Assembly (NCBI GenBank): GCA_905178155.1
Contig: CAJINV010000083.1
Span: forward strand, 1-5,700
Origin: Amoebophrya sp. A120
Taxonomy: Eukaryota; Protista; Dinoflagellata
DNA: 5,700 nt
Reading direction: 5' to 3'
Each line of letters starts with the position of its first letter. The first letter of the stretch is position 1. The notes under the pieces were generated by a model, which was given only the letters and a program-made list of their open reading frames with translations, searched no databases and was not told the origin of the DNA. Positions 1 to 5,700 of the stretch are shown here, in pieces. Position numbers and translations under genes: made by a program.

Positions 1-58
1 TTTGCATGACAAATTCATCATGTGACAGTTCGAGAATGTAACGTTTGAGAGCCCCATA
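1..58. mobile_element. Element A (truncated by window): right end of an introner/MITE interrupting gene 1
   Basis: Ends ...CCCCATA at 58, where the coding-like sequence stops, in the same codon phase as B, C and D. Contains the family motif GCATGACAAA (4-13). The predicted TSD is GCCCA (59-63); the partner end lies outside the window. Confidence 0.65.
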
Positions 59-1272
59 GCCCAAACGTGCCAAACTTCGACACGCAGACCCGGAAGATCT
101 ATCAAGTGTAAAAATGTCTGGGTCTGGAAACTTGTAATGCTGCGTTGGGAATAGTAAATGCTCTGTAATGCACAGGCAAGCATGAGAAATGCCTGCGCCT
201 CTTTGTGTTGCGTTTTTCGCATGACAAACTGCGTTTTTGCATGACAGGCAAAAGGTAAAGGGTCTCTTCTTGGACACGCATCACAAACTTTTTGGTCATG
301 CCAGACAAGCATGACAAACCCCGCAATCTTCCAGACCCAGAGGACATTTTTGCATTTGATAAGATCCCCCCGTGGTTGATCACGGCGCCCACGTGGTCGG
401 GTGGTGGGTAGTCCACTTCGCACGCGGGGCTGCAGACCAACCGGCCTTGCCGGGGGTACTGCAGGGAAGACTGCGGAATGGTCATGCTCCCGTCGTAGGG
501 CGGGTTCACGTCGTAGATGCGGTTCTGCTATGCTGTGCAAAAGTATCTGATACGCGTACTAATTCTAAATCTAATGGCAGTCCTTCATATAAAAAAATAA
601 ATTTTTTTCCTCAAGGTAAATCCGCATTACAAATTGACTTTCTCATGCTCCTGAGGGAATTTGTCATGCATTTATACGAGTACGGTACTTTTGCAGTGCA
701 TATCTGCGGACACAGTCCCAAGCCCGCCATCACGTCGTTTAAAAATTGCGAGGATTCCACGAGCATCAGCCGCACGGAGTCTGCGGGCCAAAACATGCTG
801 TCCAGAGCGATACCCAAAGAGTACCGCTGCCCTGCGTACAGCACATACCCCTGGGGCGCGAAGAAGGTGCCGGTGAACACGAGTTCCGGCGGTGTGAGCT
901 GCACATCGACGGCGGTAGTGGCGGTGACGAGCAGGCTTTTCCTCGCGGTATCGGCGAGCAGCAGTGCCTATGCACTGCAAAAGTGTCTGGGTCTGGAAGA
1001 ATACAAACTTGTGATGCGCATTTTAGAACACAGAAACATCTCTCAGGCATAGGTGGCAAAAGCTGCCCACTTTCTGTCACCAAAGTGGGGGATTTGTCAT
1101 GCGAATTCGGCATGGCGGAAGCTTCTCGAAACCTGTGATGCTAGAGCTTCCATGCCACACCTTCTGTGTCATGCAGAAACGGCATGACTCTTCCAGACCC
1201 AGACATTTTTGCACTTCATAGTGCTAGGTGAAAAAAAATCACCAGCAAACGCTGGACGAACGAGGAGGGCAT
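59..1272 (-). CDS. Spliced gene 1, 5' part (continues beyond the left window edge): predicted secreted/surface protein of unknown function. Exons approx. 1272-1221, 963-703, 523-362, 94-59 (junctions can slide within the 5-bp repeats)
   Basis: Deleting elements D, C and B plus one TSD copy each gives a stop-free 170-codon frame: MPSSFVQRLLVIFFHLALLLADTARKSLLVTATTAVDVQLTPPELVFTGTFFAPQGYVLYAGQRYSLGIALDSMFWPADSVRLMLVESSQFLNDVMAGLGLCPQNRIYDVNPPYDGSMTIPQSSLQYPRQGRLVCSPACEVDYPPPDHVGAVINHGGIFRVCVSKFGTFG. The ATG at 1272 lies in a CACCATC-ATG context, the N-terminus is hydrophobic and signal-peptide-like, and third codon positions are G/C-rich. Track ORFs 611..904 and 102..509 are exon fragments reading into elements. 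Confidence 0.88.
100..361. mobile_element. Element B: 262-bp introner/MITE-like non-canonical intron in gene 1
   Basis: TSD AGATC at 95-99 and 362-366. Left TIR TATCAAGTGTAAAAATGTCTGGGTCTGGAA matches the right end at 28/30 plus a 3-nt insertion. About 8 internal TTGTNATGC/GCATNACAA-type motifs. Removal restores the frame (HGGI|FRVC). Confidence 0.93.
529..702. mobile_element. Element C: 174-bp introner/MITE-like non-canonical intron in gene 1
   Basis: TSD TCTGC at 524-528 and 703-707. TIR TATGCTGTGCAAAAGTA vs TATGCACTGCAAAAGTA (15/17). AT-rich core with GCATTACAAA (624-633) and TTTGTCATGC (660-669). Removal restores the frame (LCPQ|NRIY). Confidence 0.9.
969..1220. mobile_element. Element D: 252-bp introner/MITE-like intron inside the signal-peptide coding region of gene 1
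   Basis: Near-perfect TSD, GTGCC (964-968) vs GTGCT (1221-1225). The 32-bp TIR matches 29/32 and ends ...TGTCTGGGTCTGGAAGA. Multiple internal motifs. Removal restores the frame (FFHLA|LLLAD). It can be read as a GC-AG intron 1224->968. Confidence 0.92.
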
Positions 1273-1292
1273 GATGGTGGTGATAGTTGTAC

Positions 1293-1498
1293 TATCAAAG
1301 AAAAAAAGTTCGTCACGATCACTCATGCGCATTTTTGCAATACAAAATTGTTTGTCATGCGTAAAAATGCATCACAGCCAAACTTCATTAGGTATTTCCC
1401 TAGTGTTTCTGCAATACAAGGAAAGTTTGTGATGCTGAGAAAATTTGTAATGCAAAGCCTGCAAGTTAGTGACTGTGACAAACTTTTTTCTCTCCATA
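1293..1498. mobile_element. Element E: 206-bp introner/MITE 20 bp upstream of the gene 1 ATG (probable 5'UTR intron)
   Basis: TSD TGTAC at 1288-1292 and 1499-1503. The 30-bp TIR matches 22/30 (core AAAAAAGTTYGTCAC). Motifs TTTGTCATGC 1351-1360, TTTGTGATGC 1426-1435, TTTGTAATGC 1444-1453. Confidence 0.88.
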
Positions 1499-2655
1499 TG
1501 TACAGTTTTATTTTTACAGTATTGTAGTGTCCTACTTAAGCAGCGCGTAGCAGTGGTAATTCGTTCTTCTTCTTGGGGCACGAGCAATAACACTAACGTC
1601 CTTGTTACCAGAAAAAACCTCTCGACGCAACTACTCACATGCTGTTTATCCGACCGTGACAGCACCCCCGCTGTTCCATCCATCGTCCCCCCAATCGCGC
1701 GCGAAAAAAAAAACAACTCTCAAACAGCTTTTGCAGATGAAAAAACACACTCGGGAGGCCAATTTTGAGTTCAAATTTGTTTCCCTCATCCTGCGGTATC
1801 TCACTGTCACAGGCTGCATAGAGGCAATTCATTGGATTATCGCAAAAAAAAAATTACGCGCACTTTGCATTTGAGTTTGACGACGTAGGAGAAATGTACC
1901 GAAACGGAAAATCTATTTGCAGACAACTGCACAAATCAGATGATGAGAGAGGAGAACAGGGACAAGACGCTGCACGAATGCGAGCCTGCGACCGCGTCTG
2001 CCATCGGAAATGATGTCCTTTTGCGAAGGTGCACGACCTCGATTCACCCGAAAACGAAATTCACAAAAAGTAGTTGCTCCACTGGCGGTAGTCACTGGAG
2101 CGATACACAGATGATACGTACGGTTGTAATGTCAGAAAAACAGAGCAGTGGCATTTCATCAAAAAATTCAAGTAACTGTAACAACATCGATCTTGGTGTA
2201 GCGCTATAATCTAGAAAAGGCACGCATGAACATCCATACAAACAAACATTTTCATGTTCAGCAATTAAGCCGTCTACCGGTATCGTCAAAAGCACGACTG
2301 ATATATGATCATTTTTATGAAGATGTTATTCTTAATTCATTCAAACAAGAAGGAAGATAGTACCCAAAAATCAAAGTCGAAAAATGTAAATGAGAAAATA
2401 TAAAGCTACGGCGAAAAAAAAAAATACATCGCAAGGACGACACGCGCCGTGCCGGTTTTGCATAACAAACAGAAGACCACCATCGTTGCTGGATCTGCAG
2501 CAAGGGAGGTCTTCTACTCTTGACATTACAAACTGTGCAACGACAAATCACAAGCACAAAAAATGGTCGCTCTGGGACTAGAACAGTACGATCGGCGTTC
2601 GGAGAGCGAGGCCAATAGCTGCTTAGTGTCCAGGATATAGGTGACCGACTCGCCT

Positions 2656-2932
2656 TATCAAACGTAAAAATGTCTGGGTCCTCTGGAAGATTTCAAACTT
2701 GTCATGCTGTCTCTGGATTCTAAAAAAATTTGTATTGCATGACCAGCAAAAGGACAACTCCAGTTTGTGCTCCGTGAAGACGAGGGCATTTCTCATGCGG
2801 TAGAGACTACATCACAAAGTCCTCTGAAAATCTGTGATGCTAAGGCATGCATCACAGATCGATCCTGGGTCATTCAAAATATGCATGACAAACCTGGCAA
2901 TCTTCCAGACCCAGACATTTTTACATTTGATA
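2656..2932. mobile_element. Element F: 277-bp MITE of the B/D subfamily, not inside a convincing ORF
   Basis: TSD CGCCT at 2651-2655 and 2933-2937. TIR matches 33/34 plus a 3-nt insertion. Shares subterminal AAACTTGTNATGC with B and D, and GCATGACAAACC..GCAATCTTCCAGACCC with B. Confidence 0.93.
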
Positions 2933-3609
2933 CGCCTGGGTGGTGGGCACTCGGCTTGGATGGAAATTTTCGCGATCACCATTTGAAAATCATACACGAA
3001 GATCCAGGAAAATAAACCATTCATCAAACGGTGGAAAACATTGTGGACGCTACAAGCGACTCTTTTCTTCCTCAAGCTCTAGCGCGTTCCCTTGGGGTGG
3101 TTAGGATTCCCCCCGGGCAGGTAGGGCGGCGGCCCGGCACGGTGGCGCCGGCGCTTGTGCCGCGAGAGAGCTAGCGGTCGCTCAGCCCTTGCGCGATGCG
3201 GAACGGGCAGTAGCTGGTCGCTGGGGGGCGGCAGGGGGTCGTAGTGTCACGGGCTGGCGAGAGCACGCCGCGGCGACGACAGGTTCGGCGCGGGTCGAGG
3301 GGGAGGTGCAGGTCGATCTCCGTTGTCCGGGCGGGGAAGGGGGGGGCGGCATAACCCGGGAGCCGTCCCCGGGCGGCGGTCTCAGTTTAGAATGAACGCG
3401 GTAGTCTCTCAGAGGTGATGTTGATCTCAGGCCCTTGTGCAGTGGGAATTTCGATCGAACACAACAACGAGCACTCTGATGCCCTGGTGTAGGGCGATGG
3501 ATCCAGCATTTTGGAACCTGTTCGGAATTCTGTGTCCTCACGTTGGTGTAGTTCGTCAACACGCCTCCCTCCCCGGCCTGTGGTAGGGCTGGGAAGGTCG
3601 GCTTGCGTG

Positions 3610-3643
3610 GTGCGGTTTTTAGGTGTGTAGTGCGGTTTTTAGG
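3610..3643. repeat. Direct repeat GTGCGGTTTTTAGG x2 (20-bp period)
   Basis: Exact 14-mers at 3610-3623 and 3630-3643. Confidence 0.8.
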
Positions 3644-3836
3644 ATCTAATGCTAGTGCAAATGGCCGATCAGGAATCTCTGCAAAGTGGTGACGGGAGCG
3701 GCCGGGCAAACAACCAGAAAAATGGCACCGCTTGCCAGGTGTTTTTGATCCCTGGCACTAGCGCGAATTTGTGGTAGCATCGGGGAATAGCGATCGGCCA
3801 TACACAAGTGGTCCTGAATAAAGACCCAGAAAAATG

Positions 3837-3876
3837 GACCGTGCCCCCGTGTCTAGGTAGCGACACGGGGCCGGTC
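3837..3876. other. GC-rich hairpin
   Basis: CCCCGTGTC (3845-3853) pairs perfectly with GACACGGGG (3862-3870) around an 8-nt loop. Outer stem GACCG/CGGTC. Confidence 0.6.
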
Positions 3877-4085
3877 TTCATTAGGGCCAAGCTAGAACAA
3901 CGCAGGCTGTGGCGCAGGGAAGTCCGGCGTCCCGCCCTTTCTAGAGACAGAAAATAAACCATTGAAAATCATACAGGATGTAGCACCGATGTAGGAGCAT
4001 GCTTTTTTCGAGAGCGGCAATTTGTTGCCGAATGGCAAATTTGCATGACAAATTTAGTAAAACGATAAAAAGCAGACCCTTATTC

Positions 4086-4177
4086 CCAAAACAAACATCA
4101 TACATTTTTCAAAAAAACAGGAGCAGAAAAGTAGACCAAAACAAACATCATACATTTTTCAAAAAGACAGGAGCGGA
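4086..4177. repeat. Tandem duplication, 50-bp period
   Basis: CCAAAACAAACATCATACATTTTTCAAAAARACAGGAGCRGA at 4086-4127 and 4136-4177 (40/42 identical). Confidence 0.9.
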
Positions 4178-4646
4178 GCCAGTGAATCTGTCTTGCGTGG
4201 AGAGGCAGTTCGTGCTCAACCATTAAGAATCATATACACAATCTCCTTAAAGGTCCGCGTATAGATGTAATAAATCGATGACTGCCAATCCTCTCTACAT
4301 GTCAACCTGAGTAATTGGGCCTGAAGCTGCTGTCACAGTTGTTTTGCAAAGTAAGTTGATAGTTGGAGCGCTGCGCCGAGCAGAAAAAAGTTGGCTTTCG
4401 ATTCTTGCCCCAAGCTGAAAGAGCAACTGGCCCCTTCACGACCTTGAGGTAAAAGTATTAAATGGCTACGATAAGTATGTACTTAGCGTAGCGCAGCAAC
4501 TACAGGGCCGGCCCAAGGGTTACACGCGTACGAGGGCCGGTCCTTTGTAATACCCGCCCCCGCCCCGGCGTCGCTCGGGCCGAGGTAAAGAAGAAGTAGA
4601 AGACCAATTTCAATTTCTTCATCTGGCTGTCTTGCATAAAGAAACA

Positions 4647-4800
4647 AGTCCCTTCGCTATCACTTACCACGCACTTTTATCTAACTACTTTAAGTACTAT
4701 CAGTCCCTTCACTATTACTCCCTTCACTATCAGTCCCTTCACTATCACTTTCACTACTAAGTAGTGAATTATATAGAATCCCTAAGTAGTGAATTATATA
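4647..4800. repeat. Minisatellite cluster at/after the predicted stop of gene 2
   Basis: 15-bp unit ACTATCAGTCCCTTC at 4696-4740 (3 copies plus a partial), with a related copy at 4647-4665. A 19-bp repeat CTAAGTAGTGAATTATATA at 4757-4775 and 4782-4800. Palindrome TTCACTACT-A-AGTAGTGAA at 4750-4768. Confidence 0.88.
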
Positions 4801-5700
4801 TATGTGTATTCTATCAATACAAGCTCAAGAATGAGCGCGAGGTCGTACCGCGTGGGACCGTCCAGATCGTAGTTACTGCTGCTTCGCGTCACTTCGAGGC
4901 GAAGAACGGCTGGCCATTCTTCATCATAGTCGCCATTCTTTTCCAACAACTCACACCAGCTGGAAGATAAGCTGCTACCTCCTGTGGCTGTGCACAACTG
5001 GAATTCCAGGTCCTGCACCTTCTGTTCGCCTGTCTCTGCGGCGCGCAAAAGCAGCTCCGGTTGGATTATACTTTCAGGACGCACTTCCACGGCCGTAATC
5101 CTCAGAGCGGCTATGTACGATGTGCGATGTGCGATGTATTTTTTGCGATGTTTTTCCGCCAATACATCGCAAAACTCATACATGCCTCTCGCCCCCACCA
5201 TACCCACTCAGCCGGCTTTTGCGGCCCAAATTTGATGCTGTGCTCCCCCGAGCCGCCGAATCTGTAGCTTGCGGCATTGCCGTGAAAAATGCCCCCACTC
5301 CGAAAGTTGCAATAATTTGCGATGCGACGTTTCCAAATGAAAACTTTTTGTCATGCATGAAAGGAATAATGAATCTTTATCTTTGTGATGCAGAGTCTAG
5401 GCGTATATAGCATTGCTCGCATGACGAGCGCCGCTCTTGCTGGGATCTGTTGCAATACAAATCTTCGCTATAATTCACGACTGGAAATCTGTGATGCTGC
5501 TAGATGCAAGAGGGCGAGTGTTTCTGTTGGAAAGGTTTGCAATACAAATGCTCCCAAGTGCGGGGGTGGGGGCGTTTTTCATTGTGATATGCGGCATTCG
5601 GCCGCGCGAGAGCCCGTTCGAACGTGTCGAGAAAGGCGGAAGCGAACTGCTTCTGATCGGTGCCAAAAGTGTACTTCTCGAGAAAGGTGTCTTGCGTGGT
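4794..5700 (-). CDS. Spliced gene 2, 3' part (starts beyond the right window edge): protein of unknown function. Exons approx. 5700-5590, 5269-5182 (or 5269-5203), 5110-4794
   Basis: The frame TTQDTFLEKYTFGTDQKQFASAFLDTFERALARPNAA joins SYRFGGSGEHSIKFGPQKPAEW after removing element G plus one TSD. It then joins ALRITAVEVRPESIIQPELLLRAAETGEQKVQDLEFQL...RYDLALILELVLIEYTYI* through a GT-AG intron at 5181-5111. Codon usage is coding-like. The true 3' end is uncertain because a GT donor after ...ILEL could lead to further exons. Confidence 0.78.
5111..5181 (-). other. Predicted 71-nt GT-AG intron in gene 2 (alternative: non-canonical intron 5202-5111)
   Basis: The sense strand reads GTATGAG...CGTACATAG. 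Splicing removes an in-frame TAG and joins into the only open downstream frame. The content is repetitive (TGCGATG copies). Confidence 0.6.
5275..5589. mobile_element. Element G: 315-bp introner/MITE-like non-canonical intron in gene 2
   Basis: TSD TGCGG at 5270-5274 and 5590-5594; the direct repeat extends to 9 bp, TGCGGCATT. TIR core TGAAAAAYGCCCCCAC (15/16). The left terminus is CAT instead of TAT. Motifs TTTGTCATGC 5347-5356 and TTTGTGATGC 5382-5391. Removal restores the frame (RPNAA|SYRFG). Confidence 0.88.

Follow-up and report, generated by a model that had tools for sequence, protein, structure and literature searches.

Introner elements of Amoebophrya and comparable systems

The introner elements of Amoebophrya sp. 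A120 were described by Farhat et al. (2021; PMC7789003) as 29,850 copies with RNA-seq support and inverted repeats in a genome with no detected U1 snRNA. In the sections of that paper drawn on here, the ends of the elements are given as TAT followed by seven variable positions and a run of three or more A, the direct repeats as 3–5 nt long, and no transposase is reported as found in A120. The A120 introners have been attributed to diverse TIR transposons (PMC12130899), while AT5 and a Karlodinium strain are stated to have canonical introns (PMC12005148), and a review (PMC11453091) is among the literature in which this introner system is already described.

The window analyzed here, a whole stretch of 5,700 nt at the start of contig CAJINV010000083.1 of A120, carries elements that share with the published introners the TAT + 7 nt + ≥3 A ends, the terminal inverted repeats, and the short border repeat (5 bp in the legend of Fig. 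S19), together with a length of approximately 240 nt, the absence of an internal transposase, borders other than GT-AG, and many copies (PMC7789003). The repeats of the A120 introners are described there as 3–5 nt long at variable positions, whereas here, once anchored on TAT/ATA, they are nearly always exactly 5 bp and adjacent; the inverted ends extend to approximately 33 nt here compared with 8–20 nt in that description. The introners of strain A25 likewise combine inverted and direct repeats with non-canonical borders, but their ends begin with TTA and two purines rather than TAT, and the non-canonical introns of that strain average 120 nt (PMC7789003). Inverted ends, target duplications, and non-GT-AG borders are also known from the non-canonical, transposon-derived introns of Fritillaria borealis and the nonconventional introns of euglenids (PMC11282704). 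The ends of the euglenid introns are brought together by pairing, with CAG/CTG pairing motifs unlike those here, and F. borealis has AG-AC/AG-AT borders with an exonic TAC, also unlike those here; TAT...ATA with free 5-bp repeats is described for neither group in the parts of that source considered (PMC11282704). The kind of element is thus already published, and the locus is one more example. The refinements that it offers are the strict 5-bp rule, the absence of any need for AG, and the occurrence of both orientations; the figures of PMC7789003 may already show some of these, the 5-bp rule in particular, and orientation independence is not stated in the portion of its text considered here.

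Elements in the window

The features of the window are collected in Table 1. A scan for TAT...ATA spans of 80–700 nt with a 5-bp repeat at no more than one mismatch returned 10 spans, among which elements B–F have 14–19 of 20 terminal bases matching between their inverted ends and the other five have 4–9 of 20. The sequence-only reading had ascribed TAT...ATA ends, inverted ends, and 5-bp direct repeats to B, C, D, and E, and this was confirmed, with 14–17 of 20 terminal bases matching in these four; the repeat is exact in B, C, E, F, and G and has a single mismatch in D (C at 968 against T at 1225). The motif TAT + 7 nt + AAA is present at 10 of 10 ends of B–F, in line with the A120 introner motif, and the inverted plus short direct repeats that the sequence-only reading gave for non-canonical Amoebophrya introns agree with the published description (PMC7789003). 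The inverted arms of element D reach 33 nt at 91% identity, and B–F all fold with their ends paired in a structure prediction made with no shuffle control. The elements display the terminal inverted repeats, the fixed-length target duplication, and the lack of coding capacity that mark MITEs or non-autonomous TIR transposons.

Table 1. Elements, repeats, and predicted exons in the 5,700-nt window.
Feature	Position	Strand	Description
Element A, right end only	1..58	.	ends ...CCCCATA; cut by window edge
Putative repeat of element A	59-63		GCCCA, right after 1-58
Predicted exon 4	59..99	-	includes repeat copy AGATC 95-99; frame continues into element A
Element B	100..361	.	262 bp, TAT...ATA, repeat AGATC 95-99 and 362-366
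Predicted exon 3	367..528	-	GC3 0.89; codon score 20.0 vs ≤-6.8 in other five frames
Element C	529..702	.	174 bp, TAT...ATA, repeat TCTGC 524-528 and 703-707
Predicted exon 2	708..968	-	GC3 0.77; codon score 15.9 vs ≤3.6 in other five frames
Element D	969..1220	.	252 bp, TAT...ATA, repeat GTGCC 964-968 / GTGCT 1221-1225
Predicted exon 1	1226..1292	-	short leader, ATG 1272-1270, first half of predicted signal peptide
Element E	1293..1498	.	206 bp, TAT...ATA, repeat TGTAC 1288-1292 and 1499-1503
Element F, beyond split gene	2656..2932	.	same superfamily, repeat CGCCT both sides
Element G, beyond split gene	5275..5589	.	repeat TGCGG both sides; left end CAT, not TAT

Bases 1–58 are the right end of a sixth element, in agreement with their earlier description as a further truncated copy. 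Relatives of this segment share its ATA end, and a TAT left end approximately 235 bases off together with a 5-bp repeat was found in two of the four checked; with an end that reads TAT, 9 nt, AAA, element A belongs to a different subfamily. Element G, in which the left TAT has decayed to CAT, has relatives at 71%–86% in four loci.

The downstream repeat of B, C, D, and E begins with G in each case, so that an AG is formed with its first base. All four elements of this gene would thus agree with a requirement for a repeat-derived AG, but this idea was rejected because the pattern does not hold family-wide. The transcript-sense end of E (1293–1310) consists of a T-rich run followed by ATA and the G of the repeat, approximately 20 nt before the ATG; the similarity to a pyrimidine tract with a following AG suggests a possible cis- or trans-splice acceptor.

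The predicted interrupted gene and its reading frame

When B, C, and D are removed, each with one repeat copy, the minus strand can be read from the ATG at 1272–1270 through 170 codons without a stop; the unspliced frame from the same ATG meets a stop after 18 codons. The four segments had been proposed to rejoin into a stop-free frame of 170 aa with a signal peptide, of which the 170 codons and the predicted signal peptide stand, but the openness counts for little, some minus frame staying open in 18 of 27 phase combinations. Moreover, the frame runs into element A, so that the 170 aa constitute an N-terminal piece and not the whole protein. The stop-free frame by itself is weak evidence, and the real support comes from codon usage. 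A codon model, for which 2018 codons in Pfam-confirmed exons of a relative served as the training set, prefers one minus-strand frame among the minus frames of each segment (scores of 2.2, 15.9, 20.0, and 2.9 from exon 1 to exon 4, with the remaining minus frames at −6 to −57), and the frames so chosen are exactly those joined by removal of the element plus 5 bp, for which the chance is approximately 1 in 27. The scores of the two short exons are weak taken singly; in exon 4, one plus frame reaches 4.0 against the 2.9 of the best minus frame.

The core of the predicted signal peptide is split by element D, and once D is taken out, its two flanks together form a hydrophobic stretch of the kind seen in signal peptides, as judged from hydropathy; the element + 5 join gives the most hydrophobic N-terminus (2.9 vs. 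2.1 and 1.95). The gene is predicted to encode a secreted protein. Element E had been counted among those interrupting the gene, but it lies approximately 20 nt upstream of the ATG, leaves the 170 codons untouched, and likely belongs to the 5′ untranslated region. The homologue search that had been suggested for the reconstructed protein was made with the exons and found none: there was no match in Pfam, in word-index searches confined to longer proteins, with HMMER over 1.84 billion representatives, or by metagenome tblastn, and no usable match in the Atlas, where one search returned none and another gave scores of ≤0.85 that are leads only. The junctions consequently cannot be checked against a protein.

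Related elements in assembly JACKZZ01

A scan of a metagenome collection for the shared element end identified at least 148 loci, all of those listed being from assembly JACKZZ01, and relatives of the elements are present in up to 147 of the 148, the loci having been selected by the shared end itself. Full-length relatives at 84%–93% were found for B, D, E, and F, including one of B at 90% in L115, one of D at 90% in L012, and one of E at 93% in L046; element C has partial relatives, at 85%–89% over approximately 100 nt of its right part. The exons have no relative in the 148 loci. Among the best 120 matches, the Rpb1 of these loci is closest to that of Amoebophrya sp. AT5.2 (P0001), with 71% over a 200-aa query, compared with approximately 46% for the next match and approximately 45% for other dinoflagellates. 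The shared families make an Amoebophrya of the A120 kind the likely host of the window, which itself contains no marker gene. The family tests rest on the assembly of a relative and not on the window's own genome.

Elements were called by their ends alone at a threshold of 15/20, leaving the repeat unused, which yielded 223 distinct copies in 118 of the 148 loci; E is missed by this caller in the window because of the threshold. A 5-bp repeat is exact in 180 and near-exact in 208 of the 223 copies, whereas shuffled pairing gave a mean of 1.1 and a maximum of 5, and repeat lengths of 3, 4, and 6 occurred in 4, 2, and 0 copies, which is the chance level. A GT-AG cut is possible in 18 of the 180, counting either strand.

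Predicted precision of removal in conserved genes of the relative

In the flank test, 137 flanking segments were taken from the best 70 of 119 elements, and 15 of them had a Pfam match. Five elements have Pfam matches on both sides, namely, Rpb1 three times, KIN17, and an ABC transporter, and in Rpb1, the profile positions continue across the element, from 24 to 26 and from 58 to 62. Four elements were found over 8 kb of Rpb1, three exonic and one in non-coding sequence within an intron, and for 3/3 of the exonic ones, removal of the element plus 5 bp was the best of offsets 0–10 against 6/6 reference proteins. The element at L069:3001-3262 splits a highly conserved Rpb1 stretch between DTAVK and TSETGYIQRRL, and another copy sits inside an intron of the same gene.

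A plain open-frame test in the relatives was weak, with 117 of 167 open at +5 compared with 97 and 96, and a codon-phase test was used instead. With the Rpb1 loci left out, 112 elements were tested; the flanks could be called as coding with confidence for 27 of them, and for 25 both flanks code on one strand. Removal of the element plus 5 bp places the flanks in phase in 24 of these 25 coding contexts (p = 6e-11 against 1/3). GT-AG is possible in two of the 25, no AG-ending cut exists in 11, and the repeat begins with G in seven. The proposal of the sequence-only reading that the elements act as precisely removed introns is supported at the family level in conserved genes of the relative.

The orientation of the elements relative to the host gene was compared over 310 related pairs among 71 exonic copies, of which 158 are opposite and 152 alike, the pairs not being independent and the host sense being inferred from codons. 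Opposite orientations are seen, for instance, when Rpb1 (L069) is set against the long frame in L052, or the ABC gene (L108) against that in L013.

Reads at the locus

Among the joints listed for eight of 18 read runs, several of which lack exon cover, there was no junction across B, C, or D, for which joins at 362/94, 703/523, and 1221/963, respectively, had been proposed. In the RNA run X16, the 103 reads fall entirely on element parts and leave the exons uncovered, and X5, X7, X8, and X9, which are guessed to be RNA, do not cover exon 2; neither set gives evidence either way. X3 and X4 look like shallow DNA. In the DNA-like run X1, contigs at 332–632 and 668–997 match without differences and bridge both borders of C; at B and D, they miss the bridging rule by one or two bases. 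The depth in X1 is 27.1 on exon 2 compared with 23.9 for the element-bearing contig, a contig depth and not a share of cells, while the summed contig depth on element bins is 1e4–5e5 compared with approximately 27 on exon 2, which is not a copy number. Splicing of B, C, and D at this locus is likely but putative, and DNA elimination is disfavored.

Around element F (2650–2937), an X5 contig at 2085–2650, without differences, and an X8 contig at 2182–2650 both end one base before the repeat and continue for 107 and 221 letters, respectively, as an F-free form would; such a form would correspond to spliced RNA or an empty site. An X1 contig at 2330–2711 reads into the element. At 2899–2932, 96 X16 RNA reads contain the end of an element, mostly next to a single flank unrelated to the window, which is an unspliced copy from another locus.

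Proposed mechanism and alternative explanations

The locus is likely to represent introners of the A120 type that carry a 5-bp target duplication in a gene for a predicted secreted protein and are excised from the pre-mRNA. The elements would be non-autonomous and DNA-transposon-like, inserting with the 5-bp duplication and spreading by cut-and-paste with a transposase presumably encoded elsewhere in the genome. Loss of the element and one repeat copy from the pre-mRNA would restore the coding sequence as it was before insertion. The paired TAT/ATA ends probably fold into a long stem that juxtaposes the two copies of the repeat and sets the cut site, a role otherwise played by GT/AG and U1 pairing; given the symmetry of the ends, an element would function in both orientations. 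The catalyst is most probably the modified, apparently U1-less spliceosome of the host, since most spliceosome parts are present (PMC7789003); a separate route, as proposed for euglenids, is less likely (PMC11282704). Recognition of the paired ends is suggested by the strict 5-bp repeat and the removal of exactly the element with one repeat, and also by the dispensability of AG and the occurrence of both orientations. A bolder and rather doubtful extension is that the splicing route reads only the paired TAT/ATA stem, in either orientation and without GT, AG, or a strand-specific branch signal, in a scar-free RNA reaction independent of the standard spliceosome core; if so, any insertion of this superfamily would be a ready-made intron. 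These results narrow the question of how Amoebophrya excises introns with neither a splice-site consensus nor a detected U1 snRNA, and the locus carries the warning that ordinary gene callers break genes split by such elements.

The elements could be true introners elsewhere while the gene studied here is not expressed or has recently become a pseudogene and collected insertions, which we regard as improbable. The lack of an exon homologue would fit such a gene, and insertion into any open frame, of a working or a defunct gene alike, would yield an identical phase result, but the strong codon bias (GC3 0.77/0.89), the 170 codons free of stops and frameshifts, and the intact predicted signal peptide speak for a working one. 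The missing homologue itself weighs less in view of the approximately 60% of Amoebophrya proteins that have no functional assignment (PMC7789003), and the best 120 Rpb1 matches name neither A120 nor A25 and include none above 71%, so that those proteomes may be absent from the searched database. There is still less room for a spliceosome that uses near-ordinary sites here, GC-AG for D and nearby GT..AG for B and C. It had been claimed that the boundaries of B, C, and D cannot be GT-AG, and no GT-AG does occur at the frame-restoring boundary of any of B–F, the exact boundaries of B, C, and D included; the claim is too strong insofar as one equivalent cut of D reads GC-AG, an option that F also has, and candidate GT..AG pairs, shifted and judged by phase alone, lie ≤30 nt away at B, C, and D. 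The AG found one base out in B, C, D, and E, where G starts the downstream repeat, and the same repeat layout in 15% of canonical A120 introns (PMC7789003) would also suit near-ordinary sites. The family-wide counts tell against them, with GT-AG possible in only 2/25 contexts, AG unavailable in 11/25, and a first-base G in only 7/25, and Rpb1 needs exactly element + 5.

Elimination of the elements at the DNA level, in an active nucleus or in one stage of the life cycle, is very improbable. Ciliate internal eliminated sequences are removed precisely and leave one short repeat copy, as proposed here; in ciliates, this removal acts on DNA, the repeat is TA, and the somatic nucleus is kept separate. 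The TA-bounded inverted ends, the short direct repeats, and the exact restoration are reminiscent of DNA excision, and the X5 and X8 contigs that stop before the F repeat and then go on, although from runs of uncertain kind, could be taken in the same sense. We know of no germline/soma split in dinoflagellates, and unlike in ciliates, nothing here shows DNA removal. The X1 contigs bridge both C borders without difference at a depth on exon 2 near that of the element-bearing contig, Rpb1 carries elements in an assembled genome, and the A120 introns were defined by RNA against genomic DNA (PMC7789003). Excision from the pre-mRNA is the reading that we favor for B, C, and D.

Other features of the window

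A 15-nt unit occurs in short tandem copies at 4641–4760, and a 137-codon open frame on the minus strand at 4794–5207 has weak coding scores and no Pfam match. A low-coding stretch at 2182–4660, with a GC-rich part at 3100–3400, a 42-nt duplication at 4086–4177, and no relative in the JACKZZ01 loci, is covered in X8 and has a second, slightly different copy of 2212–2329 in X1; its origin may lie in the duplication of a segment or in a larger mobile element.
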